Virus record (IMG/VR): IMGVR_UViG_2913192161_000005
Location: 1-32,770 of that record
DNA length: 32,770 nucleotides
Strand: one strand, 5' to 3'
DNA from: a virus
Taxonomy: Duplodnaviria > Heunggongvirae > Uroviricota > Caudoviricetes
Shown here: in pieces, positions 3,355-9,629 of the stretch
Numbering within the stretch: the stretch's first letter is position 1
How the letters are laid out: each line of letters opens with the position of its first letter
Translations under genes and position numbers: made by a program
The notes under the pieces: model-generated
What the model was told of the DNA's origin: nothing
Seen by the model: only the letters and a program-made list of their open reading frames with translations
The model's database searches: none

Positions 3355-3626
3355 GTATTCGTATTGAAATTGGCGAACGTTATGTCGTTACCAGTGACAG
3401 CTTTCAGTTTATTCTCCACGAGAAAAAGAGAGCTGAAAGCGGTAAAAACGCCGGTCAGGAATGGCTGGCGGTGGTTGGTTATTACCCGAAATTAAGCCAG
3501 CTCGTTTCCGGCCTGATGCATCACGATATTCTGACCGGAAGCGCAAAGTCTTTTGCTGATTTAAACGCGCAGGTTGAGCAACTCAGCAAGCGTTGTTCAG
3601 AGGCTTTTGGCTCATATGGCCGTTAA
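3351..3626 (+). CDS. Hypothetical protein, 91 aa (P2 orf83 position)
   Basis: ORF 3351..3626 with GGAGA upstream; 3' end overlaps start of A. Confidence 0.5.
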   Translation: MSIRIEIGERYVVTSDSFQFILHEKKRAESGKNAGQEWLAVVGYYPKLSQLVSGLMHHDILTGSAKSFADLNAQVEQLSKRCSEAFGSYGR

Positions 3627-5901
3627 AGCCTCCGGGCGTTTTGTCCCTCCGTCAGCATTTGCCGCAGGCACCGGTAAGACGTTTACCGGTGCTTATGCAT
3701 GGAACGCGCCACGCGAGGCTGTCGGGCGCGAAAGACCCCTTACACGTGACGAGATGCGTCAGGTGCAAGGTGTTTTATCCACGATTAACCGCCTGCCTTA
3801 CTTTTTGCGCTCGCTGTTTACTTCACGCTATGACTACATTCGGCGCAATAAAAGCCCGGTGCACGGGTTTTATTTCCTCACATCCACTTTTCAGCGTCGT
3901 TTATGGCCGCGCATTGAGCGCGTGAATCAGCGCCATGAAATGAATACCGACGCGTCGTTGCTGTTTCTGGCAGAGCGTGACCACTATGCGCGCCTGCCTG
4001 GAATGAATGACAAGGAGCTGAAAAAGTTTGCTGCCCGTATCTCATCGCAGCTTTTCATGATGTATGAGGAACTCTGCGATGCCTGGGTTGATGCACATGG
4101 CGAGAAAGAATCGCTGTTTACGGATGAGGCGCAGGCTCACCTGTATGGTCATGTTGCTGGTGCTGCACGTGCTTTCAATATTTCCCCGCTCTACTGGAAA
4201 AAATACCGTAAAGGGCAGATGACCACGAGGCAGGCATATTCTGCCATTGCCCGCCTGTTTAACGATGAGTGGTGGACTCATCAGCTTAAAGGCCAGCGTA
4301 TGCGCTGGCATGAGGCGTTACTGATTGCTGTCGGGGAGGTCAATAAAGACCGTTCTCCTTATGCCAGTAAACACGCCATTCGTGATGTGCGTGCACGCCG
4401 CCAGGCAAATCTGGAATTTCTTAAATCGTGTGACCTCGAAAACAGGGAAACCGGCGAGCGCATCGACCTTATCAGTAAGGTGATGGGCAGTATTTCTAAT
4501 CCAGAAATTCGCCGGATGGAGCTGATGAACACCATCGCCGGAATTGAGCGTTACGCCGCCGCAGAGGGTGATGTGGGGATGTTTATCACGCTGACCGCGC
4601 CGTCAAAGTATCACCCGACACGTCAGGTCGGAAAAGGCGAAAGTAAAACCGTCCAGCTTAATCACGGCTGGAACCATGAGGCATTTAATCCAAAGGATGC
4701 GCAGCGTTATCTCTGCCGTATCTGGAGCCTGATGCGCACGGCATTCAAAGATAATGATTTACAGGCCTACGGTTTGCGTGTCGTTGAGCCACACCACGAC
4801 GGAACGCCGCACTGGCATATGATGCTTTTTTGTAATCCACGCCAGCGTAACCAGATTATCGAAATCATGCGTCGCTATGCGCTCAAAGAGGATGGCGACG
4901 AAAGAGGAGCCGCGCGAAACCGTTTTCAGGCGAAACACCTTAACCGGGGCGGTGCTGCGGGGTATATCGCGAAATACATCTCAAAAAATATCGACGGCTA
5001 TGCACTGGATGGTCAGCTCGATAATGATACCGGCAGACCGCTGAAAGACACTGCCGCGGCTGTTACCGCATGGGCGTCAACGTGGCGCATCCCGCAATTT
5101 AAAACGGTTGGTCTGCCGACAATGGGGGCTTACCGTGAACTACGCAAATTGCCTCGCGGCGTCAGCATTGCTGATGAGTTTGACGAGCGCGTCGAGGCTG
5201 CACGCGCCGCTGCAGACAGTGGTGATTTTGCGTTGTATATCAGCGCGCAGGGCGGGGCAAATGTCCCGCGCGATTGTCAGACTGTCAGGGTCGCCCGTAG
5301 CCCGTCGGATGACGTTAACGAGTACGAGGAAGAAGTCGAGAGAGTGGTCGGCATTTACGCGCCGCATCTCGGCGCGCGTCATATTCATATCACCAGAACG
5401 ACGGACTGGCGCATTGTGCCGAAAGTGCCGGTCGTTGAGCCTTTGACTTTAAAAAGCGGCATCGCCGCGCCTCGGAGTCCTGTCAATAACTGTGGAAAGC
5501 TCACCGGTGGTGATACTTCGTTACCGGCTCCCACACCTTCTGAACACGCCGCAGCAGTGCTTAATCTGGTTGATGATGGTGTTATCGAATGGAATGACCC
5601 GGAGGTCGTGAGGGCGCTCAGGGGCGCATTAAAACACGACCTGAGAACACCAAACCGTCAGCAAAGAAACGGAAGCCCGTTAAAACCACATGAAATTGCA
5701 CCATCGGCCAGACTTACCCGGTCGGAAAGAATGCAAATTACCCGTATCCGCGTTGACCTTGCTCAGAAGGGTATCAGGCCGCAGCGATGGGAGCTTGAGG
5801 CGCTGGCGCGTGGCGCGACCGTAAATTATGACGGGAAAAAATTCACGTATCCGGTCGCTGATGAGTGGCCGGGATTCTCAACAGTAATGGAGTGGAGATG
5901 A
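3616..5901 (+). CDS. A: Rolling-circle replication initiator A (P2 gpA), 761 aa
   Basis: ORF track 3574..5901 (TTG); ATG at 3616 gives MAVKASGRFVPPSAFAAGTGK..., matching my recollection of the P2 gpA N-terminus, and gives the 761-aa length I recall for P2 A. Contains HWHMMLF and the catalytic-type YIAKYISKN tyrosine motif. Confidence 0.93.
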   Translation: MAVKASGRFVPPSAFAAGTGKTFTGAYAWNAPREAVGRERPLTRDEMRQVQGVLSTINRLPYFLRSLFTSRYDYIRRNKSPVHGFYFLTSTFQRRLWPRIERVNQRHEMNTDASLLFLAERDHYARLPGMNDKELKKFAARISSQLFMMYEELCDAWVDAHGEKESLFTDEAQAHLYGHVAGAARAFNISPLYWKKYRKGQMTTRQAYSAIARLFNDEWWTHQLKGQRMRWHEALLIAVGEVNKDRSPYASKHAIRDVRARRQANLEFLKSCDLENRETGERIDLISKVMGSISNPEIRRMELMNTIAGIERYAAAEGDVGMFITLTAPSKYHPTRQVGKGESKTVQLNHGWNHEAFNPKDAQRYLCRIWSLMRTAFKDNDLQAYGLRVVEPHHDGTPHWHMMLFCNPRQRNQIIEIMRRYALKEDGDERGAARNRFQAKHLNRGGAAGYIAKYISKNIDGYALDGQLDNDTGRPLKDTAAAVTAWASTWRIPQFKTVGLPTMGAYRELRKLPRGVSIADEFDERVEAARAAADSGDFALYISAQGGANVPRDCQTVRVARSPSDDVNEYEEEVERVVGIYAPHLGARHIHITRTTDWRIVPKVPVVEPLTLKSGIAAPRSPVNNCGKLTGGDTSLPAPTPSEHAAAVLNLVDDGVIEWNDPEVVRALRGALKHDLRTPNRQQRNGSPLKPHEIAPSARLTRSERMQITRIRVDLAQKGIRPQRWELEALARGATVNYDGKKFTYPVADEWPGFSTVMEWR

Positions 5902-6353
5902 TGGCAAAAATTCACGAGGTAAAGCTGCACGCAAAATATTTCGACCTTGTGCTGGAAGGAAAGAAACGCGCAGAGTTTCGGAAAAATGACCGTAATTATG
6001 AGCACGGGGACACGTTGATTTTGCATGAATGGGGGCAGGGTGTGTATACGGGGCGAAAGGTTGAAGCCCGGATAACAGATGTTACTGACCTGTCAGACTG
6101 GCTGGAAGATTATGTCTTGCTAAGTATTGAGCTGCTTAATACAGGCGCATATGAGATTGTGAACTGGAAAGAACTTAGTGAGCGTGGTCTGGTATTCAGA
6201 ATTAATCATGAAATTATGCATCAGCTCGGCCTTGCTGTTATGTATGAACCAGAGACGGGGATGTCTGGCGGGGCAATGGTTGCCACGGATGGAGCATGGA
6301 ACTATTCAGATGAACAGATGGAGCGTGCACAGCAAAACGGGTGGCTTGGATAA
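5898..6353 (+). CDS. DUF3850/ASCH-like protein with C-terminal extension, about 151 aa (P2 orf91 position)
   Basis: In-frame ATG at 5898/5901 within ORF 5865..6353, overlapping A stop. N-terminal MAKIHEVKLHAKYFDLVLEGKKRAEFRKNDRNYEHGDTLILHEW fits the DUF3850 (ASCH-like) pattern as I recall it. Confidence 0.65.
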   Translation: MMAKIHEVKLHAKYFDLVLEGKKRAEFRKNDRNYEHGDTLILHEWGQGVYTGRKVEARITDVTDLSDWLEDYVLLSIELLNTGAYEIVNWKELSERGLVFRINHEIMHQLGLAVMYEPETGMSGGAMVATDGAWNYSDEQMERAQQNGWLG

Positions 6354-6559
6354 TGCACAGAATACCAGGCGAGATACCGCACCATAAAACTAAAAATATC
6401 AAGCTGATGGCTATTGTTCAGCGTTTACAGCGGATTATGGTCAACGAAAATCTGACGCCCGATGAGCTGGTCGGGTGTGCCGAAATAGTCCGGGATAATT
6501 ACGGGCGGTTTAATCATATCGGTCAATCAAGAGTTACGCCACCACCACGCAGACGATAG
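6353..6559 (+). CDS. Small hypothetical protein, 68 aa
   Basis: ATG at 6353 overlapping the upstream stop (TAATG) within ORF 6341..6559. No recognisable motif; stop is 3 bp before repeat copy 1. Confidence 0.35.
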   Translation: MHRIPGEIPHHKTKNIKLMAIVQRLQRIMVNENLTPDELVGCAEIVRDNYGRFNHIGQSRVTPPPRRR

Positions 6560-6561
6560 AG

Positions 6562-6630
6562 AACGCCGCCAGTCGTGAAACTTGTTTTCAGGGCTGGCGG
6601 GGTTGAACAACGAGCGAAGCGAGGCGTTAG
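6562..6630. repeat. 69-bp structured direct repeat, copy 1
   Basis: aacgccgccagtcgtgaaacttgttttcagggctggcggggttgaacaacgagcgaagcgaggcgttag. Roughly 62 of 69 positions identical to copy 2. Internal 15-position hairpin (ccgccag...ctggcgg) and outer complementary ends aacgcc/ggcgtt. Confidence 0.7.
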
Positions 6631-6782
6631 TTGACAGACATATTTTTACTGCGTTGGTGCCGGTTTTTGACGGTTGAAAGGAGTTAGGTTGGAGAGCTAA
6701 CAACTTACAAATATTCAAAAGTAAGCATCCTGTTGCTAACATGAGGTCGATTTTTTATGTGGATGATGCAAAAAGGATAGCT

Positions 6783-7514
6783 ATGGATACTATAATCGCT
6801 TTTCTATCACTCGCTTTTTTCGTTGCTTTCTTCATCGGGTTAATCAAGCCATCACTGGTGCGAATGCCAAACCGCAAACGTGCAAGTGCGGTTTATCTCG
6901 GAGGAGGTTTTGTATTGAGCATAATTGGTTCAATACTCTATCCAACAGAAAAAAGCCAGCCAGTTGCCAAAACTGAAACATCAACCGTTGCAGAACACAA
7001 AGTCCAAAAAACATTCGAATATGGTGAAAAAACACTCAAGGAATATCGGAACGAGTCAAAGAAAACACGACACGATATTGTGAATAGTTACATTGATTTT
7101 AAGGAAGTGCCAGTCACCGCATCAGATGCATTTTATGCCTGCATGAGTGAGTATACATTTACCAAAGATGATGAGTTGAAACTCGGTGATGTTCTTGGGT
7201 GGTGCTTTAATGATTATGAAAATGCCCCGGATTCACTAAACAATAAAATCAATCTTGATACATTTCAGAGTAATTTTAGTGGTTGGGATGGTTCTTATCG
7301 TCCATTGGAAAAACTAATTAAAGATAATATGAACGATGATTCATCTTATAAACATGTGTCAACGGTATATCATTTGGTTTTGAATAAAGACCCGCACGCC
7401 ATTGTGAAAACCACGTTTCGCGGCACTAATGCTTATGGTGGAGTGGTAAAGCAGACCGTAGCGGCGCGCGTCAACGTGCGAACGGGTGAGGTCGATTCGA
7501 TACTCGACAATTAA
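6783..7514 (+). CDS. Cargo membrane protein, two N-terminal TM helices plus about 170-aa soluble domain, 243 aa
   Basis: ORF track 6741..7514; ATG at 6783 has AAGGA upstream and is preferred. Hydrophobic stretches IIAFLSLAFFVAFFIGLI and AVYLGGGFVLSIIGSILY. AT-rich; no P2 backbone counterpart recognised. Confidence 0.6.
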   Translation: MDTIIAFLSLAFFVAFFIGLIKPSLVRMPNRKRASAVYLGGGFVLSIIGSILYPTEKSQPVAKTETSTVAEHKVQKTFEYGEKTLKEYRNESKKTRHDIVNSYIDFKEVPVTASDAFYACMSEYTFTKDDELKLGDVLGWCFNDYENAPDSLNNKINLDTFQSNFSGWDGSYRPLEKLIKDNMNDDSSYKHVSTVYHLVLNKDPHAIVKTTFRGTNAYGGVVKQTVAARVNVRTGEVDSILDN

Positions 7515-7528
7515 ACAATATAGTGACA

Positions 7529-7597
7529 AACGCCGCCAGTACTGAAACTTGTTTTCAGTGCTGGCGGGGTTAAACAACGAGCCACGCGAGGCGTTAG
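7529..7597. repeat. 69-bp structured direct repeat, copy 2
   Basis: aacgccgccagtactgaaacttgttttcagtgctggcggggttaaacaacgagccacgcgaggcgttag. Starts 15 bp after the stop of the 6783..7514 gene; hairpin ccgccagtactgaaa-cttg-ttttcagtgctggcgg at 7533..7567. Confidence 0.7.
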
Positions 7598-7621
7598 ACT
7601 AAATTAAATTGAGGCCGAAAA

Positions 7622-8284
7622 ATGCTTTGGAAAGTGATTACATTTGTACTTGTCGGTGTTTGTATTTTTGTTCTCGGCTTATGGCTAGGTTCTATTCAGG
7701 CTGAATGGTCGAAACCAGAGCATAAAGATGCTGTTGCTTATTTAACTATGATAGGCGGATGGGTCTCAGGAATTGCAACATCAATAGCAGTAATTGTTTC
7801 ACTGTATGCGACATATCAATCATCACAAAATAATATTGAAAAATTAGCTTTATTCTATAAGCCTTACCCGAGCGATAATAATGAAAATTACTGTGCAAAT
7901 GTTGAAGTGAAGAATATGCGGAGTGTTTCGGCGCATATACAAGAGTTTTGTTTGGAAATTAGTGGGGTAGATGGTCACATCAATATAAACAAACTAAAAG
8001 CTAATGGGCTACGAATCCCGTATTCTTTATGCCAAATAGGCGAAGTATGGGAGTTTGCTTTTTATCCTGCTGCAAGTCAGAAAAATATGAAGTTCTATCA
8101 TGAACTGAGTGTTAATGGGAGTCCAACTTTCCGAAGTGGTTTCTTTGTGGTTAAAACATCAATGAAGCAATACAAACTAAGGATACCTAAAGTGTTGTTG
8201 AGAATGATGAAAGCTAACTATGAAAAACAAATAAAAATACGGGAGATGTATAAGGAAATGCATGGTAAAGATATGGATATATAA
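7622..8284 (+). CDS. Cargo membrane protein, two N-terminal TM helices plus about 150-aa soluble domain, 220 aa
   Basis: ORF 7622..8284 with GAGG upstream. Hydrophobic stretches VITFVLVGVCIFVLGLWLGSI and VAYLTMIGGWVSGIATSIAVIVSLYA. Strongly AT-rich. Confidence 0.6.
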   Translation: MLWKVITFVLVGVCIFVLGLWLGSIQAEWSKPEHKDAVAYLTMIGGWVSGIATSIAVIVSLYATYQSSQNNIEKLALFYKPYPSDNNENYCANVEVKNMRSVSAHIQEFCLEISGVDGHININKLKANGLRIPYSLCQIGEVWEFAFYPAASQKNMKFYHELSVNGSPTFRSGFFVVKTSMKQYKLRIPKVLLRMMKANYEKQIKIREMYKEMHGKDMDI

Positions 8285-8407
8285 GACGCATTAAATAGCA
8301 TCAAATTGCATGGTTTTTCCTCCCCTGCAGTGAGTGAGCGCCACCAGTGCTGGCGCGTCTCCGACGTGTTTGTGCAACTGCATTAAAACCGACCCATGAA
8401 GCGGGCG

Positions 8408-8426
8408 GGCGAGGCGGGGAAAGCAC
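8408..8426. other. cos cohesive-end site (P2-type 19-nt cos)
   Basis: ggcgaggcggggaaagcac matches the P2/P4 cohesive-end sequence as I recall it. Located in the GC-rich intergenic region immediately beyond the 3' end of Q, as in P2. Confidence 0.65.
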
Positions 8427-8568
8427 TGCGCGCTGGCGGTGGTGCTGATTTTATTTTTTCAGCGTCTGAGCGCGTCGTGACGGCGTTTGGATTGTGCGCC
8501 GGGGCGTTGGTGGGTCTGCGGGATGTTTTGTGCGGTGGTGAGCGTGTGAGGGCGTGATGACGGGGTGT

Positions 8569-8594: not shown

Positions 8595-9629
8595 TCAGCC
8601 GTTGTCAGTGTCCAGTGAGTAGTTTTTAAAGCGGATGACCTCCTGACCGAGCCAGCCGTTTATCTCGCGGATCCTGTCCTGTAACGGGATAAGTTCATTG
8701 CGGACAAAGACCTTTGCCACTTTCTCAATATCACCCAGCGACCCGACGTTCTCCGGCTTGCCGCCCATCAACTGAAAGGGGATGCGGTGCGCGTCCAGCA
8801 GGTCAGCGGCGCTGGCTTTTTTGATATTAAAAAAATCGTCCTTCGTTGCCACTTCACTGAGCGGGATAATTTTAATGCCGTCGGCTTTCCCCTGCGGGGC
8901 ATAGAGAAACAGATTTTTAAAGTTGTTGCGGCCTTTCGACTTAACCATGTTTTCGCGAAGCATTTCGATATCGTTGCGATCCTGCACGGCATCGGTGACG
9001 TACATGATGTATCCGGCATGTGCGCCGTTTTCGTAATACTTGCGGCGGAACAGCGTGGCCGACTCATTCAGCCAGGCAGAGTTAAGGGCGCTGAGATATT
9101 CCGGCAGGCCGTACAGCTCCTGATTAATATCCGGCTCCAGCAGGTGAAACACGGAGCCGGGCGTGAAAGGTGTCGGCTCGTTGAAGGACGGCACCCACCA
9201 GTAAACATCCTCTTCCACACCACGGCGGGTATATTTTGCCGGTGAGGTTTCCAGTCTGATGACCTTACCGGTGGTGCTGTAACGCTTTTCCAGAAACGCA
9301 TTACCGAACACCAGAAAATCCAGCACAAAGCGGCTGAAATCCTGCTGGGAAAGCCACGGGTGCGGGATAAATGTCGAGGCCAGAATATTGCGTTTGACGT
9401 AAATCGGTGAGCTGTGATGCACGGCAGCACGCAGACTTTTTGCCAGACCGGTAAAGCTGACCGGCGGCTCATACCATCTGCCGTTACTGATGCATTCTAC
9501 GTAATCCAGAATGTCACGGCGGTCGAGTACCGGCACCGGCTCGCCAAAGGTGAATGCCTCCATTTTCAGGGCGCTGGCGGTCATTGTTTTTGCCGCAGGT
9601 TGCGGTGTTTTCCCTTTTTTCTTACTCAT
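8595..9629 (-). CDS. Q: Portal protein (P2 gpQ), 344 aa
   Basis: ORF 8595..9629 minus. Size and position match P2 Q (first leftward gene beside cos, upstream stop overlaps as TGATG with P). Confidence 0.92.
   Translation of the reverse strand: MSKKKGKTPQPAAKTMTASALKMEAFTFGEPVPVLDRRDILDYVECISNGRWYEPPVSFTGLAKSLRAAVHHSSPIYVKRNILASTFIPHPWLSQQDFSRFVLDFLVFGNAFLEKRYSTTGKVIRLETSPAKYTRRGVEEDVYWWVPSFNEPTPFTPGSVFHLLEPDINQELYGLPEYLSALNSAWLNESATLFRRKYYENGAHAGYIMYVTDAVQDRNDIEMLRENMVKSKGRNNFKNLFLYAPQGKADGIKIIPLSEVATKDDFFNIKKASAADLLDAHRIPFQLMGGKPENVGSLGDIEKVAKVFVRNELIPLQDRIREINGWLGQEVIRFKNYSLDTDNG

Follow-up and report, generated by a model that had tools for sequence, protein, structure and literature searches.

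A membrane-protein gene beside cos in a P2-type prophage as a candidate phage-exclusion factor of the gpA-gpQ hotspot

In P2, the locus between the replication gene A (gpA) and the portal gene Q (gpQ) holds old and tin (PMC9122126), and this gpA-gpQ locus has been documented as a reservoir of anti-phage systems in which 1,650 arrangements occur (PMC9122126; PMC13586616). For orf97 of phage 186, a note in GenBank entry U32222 reads 'expression from plasmid blocks 186 infection', and SNIPE has been described as a nuclease that is bound to the membrane and acts where the phage genome is injected (PMC13190303). Here, we analysed a gene that lies in the same hotspot, directly downstream of an orf97 homologue, in the virus record IMGVR_UViG_2913192161_000005 (Caudoviricetes), whose complete stretch of 32,770 nucleotides we call the window. 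The gene, at positions 7622 to 8284 and referred to below as the target, encodes a predicted membrane protein of 220 amino acids (aa). Because the gpA-gpQ locus is an anti-phage reservoir and the upstream neighbour is reported to block 186, we favour, tentatively and with slightly less than even confidence, the view that its product would be a non-enzymatic inner-membrane phage-exclusion factor, co-expressed with Orf97.

The gene, its family and its genomic settings

The target is a genuine protein-coding gene under purifying selection and not a chance open reading frame (ORF), since it has 26 close homologues and 116 detected by profile search, with pairwise ratios of nonsynonymous to synonymous substitution rates (dN/dS) of 0.09-0.34 against homologues. 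No positive selection was seen, as pairwise dN/dS stays below 1 save in one short segment with low counts. The TGAGG at its ribosome-binding site (RBS) is retained in 5 of the 6 homologous loci linked to orf97, and in an E. coli locus of 99.2% identity RefSeq calls the gene a 'hypothetical protein'. A preliminary description, drawn from the letters of the window alone, had placed it in a strongly AT-rich segment, and its GC content is indeed 35.4% (30% at third codon positions), whereas the window as a whole has 51.1% and the gpA, portal and terminase genes have 53-57%. A base composition unlike that of the backbone is expected of accessory ('moron') cargo; the orf97-like neighbour is likewise low in GC (40%).

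The window represents a P2-type prophage with an integrase, a C-like repressor and the early genes of the cox side. Within it, the target sits between gpA and gpQ, beside cos, an arrangement with which the RefSeq annotation of a 99% identical locus agrees. That it is the last gene before cos, as had been described, follows from the presence downstream of a 19-mer, GGCGAGGCGGGGAAAGCAC, which we take to be the cohesive end shared by P2, 186 and P4, together with the linear Peduovirus P24A7b record, which ends at the base matching window position 8407. The same description had put the gene at the site where old resides in P2 and seen no P2 backbone role for it; the site is that of the gpA-gpQ locus (PMC9122126), and no backbone homologue was found. 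A GC-rich ORF of 53-61 aa (MKRAGEAGKALRAGGG...) spans the cos 19-mer in the window (8396-8557, plus strand) and in two of the loci compared, which carry handles of the form L001 (L034, 4090-4251; L036, 4736-4921). This ORF across cos, a 'hypothetical protein' in some E. coli RefSeq genomes, is most likely an annotation artefact.

The target is an accessory gene, as its allele was found by megablast in only 4 of 5426 complete E. coli genomes and its slot holds other genes in related prophages; it is absent from P2 and from phage 186. The close and intermediate homologues occupy 22 loci, all of them in prophages that are P2-like or 186-like, with the gene between gpA and portal, on the gpA strand. 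Clear phage genes are carried by 30 of the 31 loci with a family member, the remaining one (L032) showing only umuDC-like genes, and every classifiable context that we inspected is a prophage accessory slot. The upstream neighbour varies by locus, being orf97, an 85-aa phrog_2100 protein that is itself widespread in P22-like and SSU5-like phages, or other genes. Both orf97 and the phrog_2100 gene were rejected as obligate partners, each occurring independently of the target; there is no conserved partner gene, and the target therefore behaves as a single-gene module. In L004, a 186-like prophage of Kosakonia sp. BYX6, an ApeA-like HEPN protein (PF18862/PF18739; 7945-9330) is encoded between the family member and the portal gene, so that a recognised defence-type gene shares the hotspot with the target family at this locus.

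The family is small, confined to phages and prophages and previously undescribed. A hidden Markov model (HMM) search of 1.84 billion cluster representatives returned 82 members of about 40-260 aa, mostly 170-230 aa, and the profile search, covering a set of 5.8 billion sequences, returned the 116 members mentioned above, all named 'hypothetical' and none with a Pfam domain, from Enterobacterales, Acinetobacter, the Pseudomonas group and Chromohalobacter. No family homologue was found in 72,556 plasmids, and those in phage genomes are all unannotated. No Pfam or NCBIfam model matched the target significantly, PADLOC-DB 2.0 gave no match at E up to 1, and the only significant PHROG match was phrog_16957 (E = 6.8e-69), of unknown function. 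Sub-threshold matches of the target and of 29 diverse relatives to known families (DUF996, tetraspanin, holin-like, GRDA) in Pfam, NCBIfam, PADLOC and PHROG were set aside as noise driven by transmembrane (TM) segments. A search of the literature at hand found no paper mentioning the family, and the tables of Rousset et al. (PMC9122126) list an orf97-like gene ('DinI + hypothetical'), not the accession of the target. Additionally, in a tblastn search a member with a single TM segment matched Listeria phage PSU-VKH-LP041 at 45468-45842 (E = 2e-9, 33% identity over 74%), which hints that the family, or its TM-plus-β core, may extend to phages of Gram-positive hosts.

The distant relatives, which have one TM segment, occupy typical accessory slots of other kinds. 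In lambdoid prophages of Enterobacter, Serratia and Yersinia they lie between the lysis cassette and the terminase; in Acinetobacter prophages the member comes right after an Arc-like gene beside bro, near the integrase or P2-type tail genes; in a P2-like prophage of the Pseudomonas group it lies at the prophage end, and in Chromohalobacter it adjoins umuDC-like genes. These settings bear on the proposal that the product serves the phage's own cycle at the membrane, for example as a modulator of holin or lysis timing or of membrane-associated replication or packaging, and is not directed against other phages. In three lambdoid prophages the homologue indeed stands directly past the holin, endolysin and spanin genes, on their strand and upstream of the terminase, in P2-like phages the gene adjoins cos, and a membrane-tethered cytoplasmic domain could bind a holin tail; the sub-threshold holin-like matches (E = 0.09-0.27) most probably reflect TM composition alone. 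The gap between lysis genes and terminase is, however, a common accessory slot in lambdoid phages, which counts against this proposal, and the gene is dispensable and rare, being present in 4 of 5426 E. coli genomes and missing in P2 and 186. It also lies far from the lysis genes in P2-like prophages and beside arc and bro near the integrase in Acinetobacter, and its high turnover would be unusual for a core life-cycle partner. We consider a role in the phage's own cycle improbable.

Predicted architecture and membrane orientation

The preliminary description had read two N-terminal TM helices followed by a soluble domain of about 150 aa, and both hydropathy and AlphaFold2 (AF2) bear this out. 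Hydropathy places the TM segments at about residues 2-27 and 38-64, and AF2 models a helical hairpin (H2-28 and H32-70) followed by a soluble part of about 150 aa, with a predicted local distance difference test (pLDDT) score of 82 for the full-length protein; residues 66-220 modelled alone reach a pLDDT of 90 and a predicted template modelling (pTM) score of 0.83. Structure prediction and a fold search had been proposed in that description, and they returned a confidently modelled seven-strand sandwich. As modelled, its fold is a generic, non-enzymatic immunoglobulin (Ig)-like one, and every match in BFVD was to an uncharacterised phage protein combining a TM segment and a β-domain. A profile search against solved structures yielded only a weak match, to an archaeal pilin (E = 0.018), for which the hydrophobic helix was responsible, and a reading as type IV pilin or archaellin was ruled out by the topology and the absent prepilin signal.

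Conservation is concentrated in the second TM helix (TM2, VAYLTMIGGWVSGIATSIAVIVSLY), the best-conserved segment of the family, whose dN/dS is below that of the soluble part (0.04-0.23 for residues 1-66). Only G45, W47 and A56 are invariant across the 29 diverse members, all of them in TM2 (motif SMLGGWVSGIGTLAAVVVSLWLA), where a small-residue face, GGxxSGxAT, is formed. In the soluble domain, conservation among these relatives is limited to structural motifs (LP..L.YGE...F and V.T...F), the C-terminal helix region differs in length and sequence across the family, and no catalytic signature was found among the conserved residues. The Cys and His motifs that had been pointed out in the preliminary description are present in the window copy, and any functional meaning is lost with their lack of conservation: none of the 4 Cys and 5 His residues is conserved in the 23 homologues of at least 40% identity (C137 is kept in 2 of the 23 and H119 in 3), and across the 29-member alignment every Cys and His of the target is variable. 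The idea of a metal or redox site was rejected for this lack of conservation.

The orientation in the membrane was deduced from distant relatives that do not have the first TM helix (TM1). In these single-TM proteins a neutral or acidic flank precedes the TM segment (mean K+R 0.46) and a strongly basic one follows it (3.4), and since a basic flank following the TM segment marks the cytoplasmic side under the positive-inside rule, the β-domain of the target is predicted to be cytoplasmic. In the form with two TM helices, the N-terminus would then be cytoplasmic as well, and the 10-aa loop periplasmic. Inner-membrane localisation is likewise a prediction, from the two hydrophobic helices and the positive-inside pattern.

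This layout is also what might be expected of an abortive-infection effector, in which the cytoplasmic β-sandwich would sense a phage protein and the conserved small-residue TM helices would oligomerise into a depolarising, killing pore; the logic would be that of effectors with two TM helices such as Cap15, minus the nucleotide signal. A conserved TM2 (G45, W47, A56, GGxxSGxAT) joined to a variable soluble part fits an effector coupled to a sensor, and the arrangement of two TM helices and a β-rich domain resembles the S_2TMBeta effectors of the same P2 hotspot (Table S5, PMC9122126). When the 29 diverse members were searched against PADLOC, a single one gave a sub-threshold match, to the generic '2TM effector' model (E = 0.015), and Rousset et al. 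note that a TM protein belonging to a defence system tends to be its suicide effector. The target appears to be expressed with the phage's own SOS or late genes in several lineages (see below), which leads us to prefer, somewhat, a non-lethal block to a suicide effector. We regard such a killing pore as unlikely, though the likeliest of the alternatives.

The orf97 neighbour and turnover at the slot

Upstream of the target, window positions 6733-7601 are 77.6% identical in nucleotide sequence to phage 186 over orf97. The encoded protein matches phrog_3403 (E = 6.8e-145) and shares 78-82% aa identity with six homologues; megablast detects the gene in 88 of the 5426 complete E. coli genomes, and RefSeq still labels it 'hypothetical'. 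The loop between its TM helices is basic (RMPNRKRSS), which suggests that the C-terminal domain of Orf97 is periplasmic, i.e. that it has the orientation opposite to that of the target.

The two genes are separated by the second of two copies of a 69-nt hairpin repeat. The copies are 91% identical and form a hairpin with a 15-bp stem (RNA fold -37 kcal/mol, z about -4.7), and the second copy is kept in homologous loci. In the phage 186 record, the LexA-controlled promoter p95 is followed by tum, the partial terminator t95a, orf97 and the terminator t95b, with no gene between orf97 and its terminator and the genome end. The same 69-nt element follows orf97 there and leads into t95b, a T-tract terminator; in the window and its relatives t95b is absent, and the RBS and ATG of the target stand in its place after the hairpin element. 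A consensus scan detected no σ70-like site between the hairpin and the target ATG, and no T-tract terminator was found after orf97 and no clear one after the target. As no terminator-like site lies between them, the target is probably read through from orf97, and the two genes probably share one transcription unit. With respect to the repeat itself, a partial third copy, CAGTGCTGGCG, is found at 8345-8355, the two full copies bracket the orf97-like gene, and one copy lies just upstream of each AT-rich cargo gene. The repeat may serve as a cassette boundary, as a recombination anchor or as an attenuator for hotspot cargo, and as an element bracketing cassettes it may help to explain cargo swapping at the hotspot. 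In L001 (E. coli bR_120_Kylling, the genome closest to the window), an IS3-family transposase (3889-5117) is inserted between the 72-aa ORF and orf97, just past the first copy of the hairpin element.

Carriers of the 186 type, such as L003, have tum and a perfect LexA box upstream. In the P2-type backbone of the window neither tum nor a LexA box was found, and LexA/SOS control was ruled out there by the absence of the box. In lambdoid relatives, the lysis genes are closely followed on their strand by the homologue, which in L023 is 40 nt past a spanin-like gene. This would fit expression while the phage itself develops lytically. Judged by these positions, the target appears to be expressed with the phage's own SOS or late genes in several lineages.

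The linkage raises the question of an obligate two-gene system, in which a periplasm-facing Orf97 and a cytoplasm-facing target would make up one exclusion complex across the membrane. Both are proteins with two TM helices whose charge patterns suggest opposite topologies, and in the window, as in 13 of the 22 loci surveyed, they stand in tandem, separated by some 110 nt of conserved sequence that contains no T-tract terminator. Yet each gene is also found alone: orf97 occurs without the target in phage 186, in many more E. coli genomes (88 against 4, by megablast) and before unrelated downstream genes, and orf97 is missing beside the family member in L004-L011, L021, L022 and all distant relatives. 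The two families are moreover unrelated, paralogy being ruled out by an hhalign probability of 0.5%, and they evolve at very different rates. An obligate pair is, in our judgement, very unlikely.

The difference in rate is visible at the loci whose Orf97 is 78-82% identical to the window copy, where the downstream target is only 32-54% identical. Behind copies of orf97 that are 94-96% identical, the occupant of the slot is a very divergent family member or one of two unrelated genes, of 224 and 429 aa (Table 1); the orf97-cos slot is itself a mini-hotspot. No Pfam or PADLOC match was obtained for the two unrelated proteins; the 429-aa protein contains a D...VLVEVKSS stretch reminiscent of PD-(D/E)xK nucleases. 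Within the target, the synonymous substitution rate (dS) is lower in the 5' third encoding the TM helices than in the 3' two-thirds (0.52 versus 1.30 in one pair; 0.02 in the 5' part and 0.40 in the 3' part for L005 versus L007), and this difference suggests intragenic mosaicism by recombination, with a common 5' end and exchangeable 3' ends.

Further features of the region are collected in Table 1. The DUF3850/ASCH gene and the 72-aa ORF of phrog_11386 are conserved in this P2 sub-lineage, and both are uncharacterised.

Table 1. Features of the window around the target, and genes occupying the orf97-cos slot at three E. coli chromosome loci (L034, L035, L036)
Feature	Position	Strand	Basis or remark
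Target membrane-protein coding sequence	7622..8284	+	ORF list; ATG start, 220 aa, stop codon included
Shine-Dalgarno GAGG, 7 nt before target ATG	7611..7614	+	Sequence
Target residues 1-66: TM1, short periplasmic loop, TM2	7622..7819	+	Hydropathy; AF2 helices
Target residues 67-189: Ig/FN3-like β-sandwich (seven strands, one helix), predicted cytoplasmic	7820..8188	+	
Target residues 190-220: charged C-terminal α-helix, least constrained part	8189..8281	+	AF2 helix 190-214; dN/dS 0.3-0.7
cos 19-mer	8408-8426	+	Exact single match; 123 nt past target stop
Phage 186 orf97 homologue, 243 aa	6783-7514	+	RefSeq start; ORF-list entry (257 aa) starts at 6741; directly upstream of target
69-nt hairpin repeat, copy 1	6562..6630	+	Just upstream of orf97-like gene
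69-nt hairpin repeat, copy 2	7529..7597	+	Between orf97 stop and target RBS; no T-tract after it
Replication gene A (gpA)	3574-5901		
DUF3850/ASCH + DUF7415 protein, predicted RNA-binding fold	5865-6353	+	phrog_1812/phrog_986; overlaps end of gene A
72-aa ORF	6341-6559	+	phrog_11386; follows DUF3850/ASCH gene
Portal gene Q	8595-9629	-	Followed by terminase P, same strand
Divergent family member in orf97-cos slot	L034 3316-3972		hmmsearch 2.6e-49
Unrelated 224-aa soluble protein in orf97-cos slot	L035 3392-4066		
Unrelated 429-aa protein in orf97-cos slot	L036 3345-4634		

A candidate exclusion factor and its described counterparts

Under the exclusion reading, which remains the one we prefer, the target would be single-gene accessory cargo of the P2 gpA-cos hotspot, sharing its transcript with the upstream exclusion gene orf97. 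Its product would have a cytoplasmic N-terminus, TM1, a periplasmic loop of about 10 aa, TM2 and a cytoplasmic β-sandwich ending in the C-terminal helix, and it would act through protein-protein contacts on the cytoplasmic side of the inner membrane, hindering a superinfecting phage at genome entry or in its earliest steps without killing the cell. The strongly conserved TM helix might let the protein self-associate or dock to a conserved component of the membrane, and specificity would come from the faster-evolving β-sandwich. The topology, the co-transcription and the entire function are what we infer from these analyses. A bolder view makes the target the founding member of a family of single-protein immunity factors that is restricted to prophages and spans those of the P2-like, lambdoid, Acinetobacter and Pseudomonas kinds. 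In it the near-invariant TM helix (GGWVSGIAT...AV..SL) would be the effector or docking element and the rapidly diversifying cytoplasmic sandwich would directly recognise components of the incoming phage, so that the protein would serve as a minimal membrane 'receptor' for phage proteins, with no enzyme and no second messenger; we hold this to be possible but rather doubtful.

Several points weigh against an exclusion role. No homology to a known superinfection-exclusion (Sie) or defence protein was detected in PADLOC, the PHROG categories or Pfam. The preliminary description had implied defence-type membrane cargo, and this holds up as far as the accessory nature of the gene, the hotspot and the orf97 neighbour are concerned and not as a match to any known defence family; a defence or abortive-infection role is putative, suggested by where the gene lies and how its product is built. 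Classical injection blockers seldom look like the predicted protein, most of which would be in the cytoplasm and hardly any of it in the periplasm. The blocking phenotype of orf97 comes from the note in GenBank U32222, and the regulatory logic of 186 may not apply in the window, as tum and the LexA box are missing there. No convincing σ70 promoter or terminator of the target's own was found. Finally, the cargo of the hotspot is not confined to defence and includes partition systems and the cytolethal distending toxin (CDT) (PMC9122126).

This last point leads to the proposal that the target is a lysogenic-conversion gene acting on host physiology, for example on envelope stress, transport or colonisation, outside any conflict between phages. 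AT-rich foreign cargo in a prophage would suit it, as does a hotspot known to carry such non-defence genes, and the fold is a generic interaction module, TMEM106B/LEA-2-like and ApaG-like folds having non-immune roles. It is countered by the distribution of the family, which occurs only in phage and prophage accessory slots of several phage types and on none of the plasmids, by the adjoining and apparently transcriptionally linked phage-blocking gene, and by the lack of a signal peptide or surface-exposed part. We judge lysogenic conversion of this kind quite unlikely, if a shade more probable than a part in the phage's own cycle.

For the present, the target is best filed as an uncharacterised new family among prophage hotspot cargo and candidate exclusion genes. 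If the exclusion reading is true, it would define a compact exclusion or defence family of about 200 aa that has no enzymatic domain. The family is invisible to Pfam, NCBIfam and PADLOC and recurs across unrelated lineages of temperate phages of Gammaproteobacteria. Together with the neglected orf97 of 186, the target would then make a tractable pair, one member facing the periplasm and the other the cytoplasm, with which to study how temperate phages protect a cell at its inner membrane, perhaps while they are themselves being induced by SOS. Without a phenotype the target stays one of many hypothetical hotspot genes; many such genes are to be expected there, and the family picture, the linkage to orf97 and the small size make this one directly testable.

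Compared with described systems, the target would at most work like Orf97, SieA, Imm or the Cap15-type effectors with two TM helices, and it is a member of none of these families, given that the HMM and profile tests were negative, that no cyclase is nearby and that the sandwich fold is generic. With Orf97 of 186 it shares the hotspot and strand, an N-terminal anchor of two TM helices followed by a soluble domain, and a low GC content; it differs in having no sequence or profile similarity, in its probably opposite topology and in its high variability, whereas Orf97 is highly conserved. P22 SieA and T4 Imm are, like the target, single inner-membrane proteins encoded by phages or prophages and free of enzymatic motifs, but no homology was found, most of the mass of the target is a cytoplasmic β-sandwich rather than membrane-embedded, and exclusion by the target is putative.

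The effectors Cap15, of the cyclic-oligonucleotide-based anti-phage signalling systems (CBASS), and S_2TMBeta have the same order of two N-terminal TM helices and a small all-β domain in about 200 aa. The S_2TMBeta Pfam model did not match the target at E up to 1, nor was it one of the 25 families hit most often by the 29 relatives, out of 40 in all, and no cyclase or CD-NTase (cGAS/DncV-like nucleotidyltransferase) gene lies beside the target, where orf97, the DUF3850 gene, the 72-aa ORF and portal are found, or in the family loci inspected. Among known proteins, the nearest sandwich folds with which the target was compared are those of the TMEM106B luminal domain and LEA-2-like proteins, ApaG (DUF525) and archaeal pilins or archaellins.

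Old is an ATPase-nuclease and Tin targets T-even replication. These and other cargo of the gpA-gpQ locus resemble the target in occupying the same slot by cos and in being accessory, AT-rich and swapped between near-identical prophages, whereas neither kind of domain is present in the target. SNIPE (PMC13190303) is close to it in concept, as a membrane-tethered, cytoplasm-facing protein that can meet incoming phage components at the inner membrane; it has a nuclease domain, in contrast to the target, which has no catalytic domain and no homology to it.

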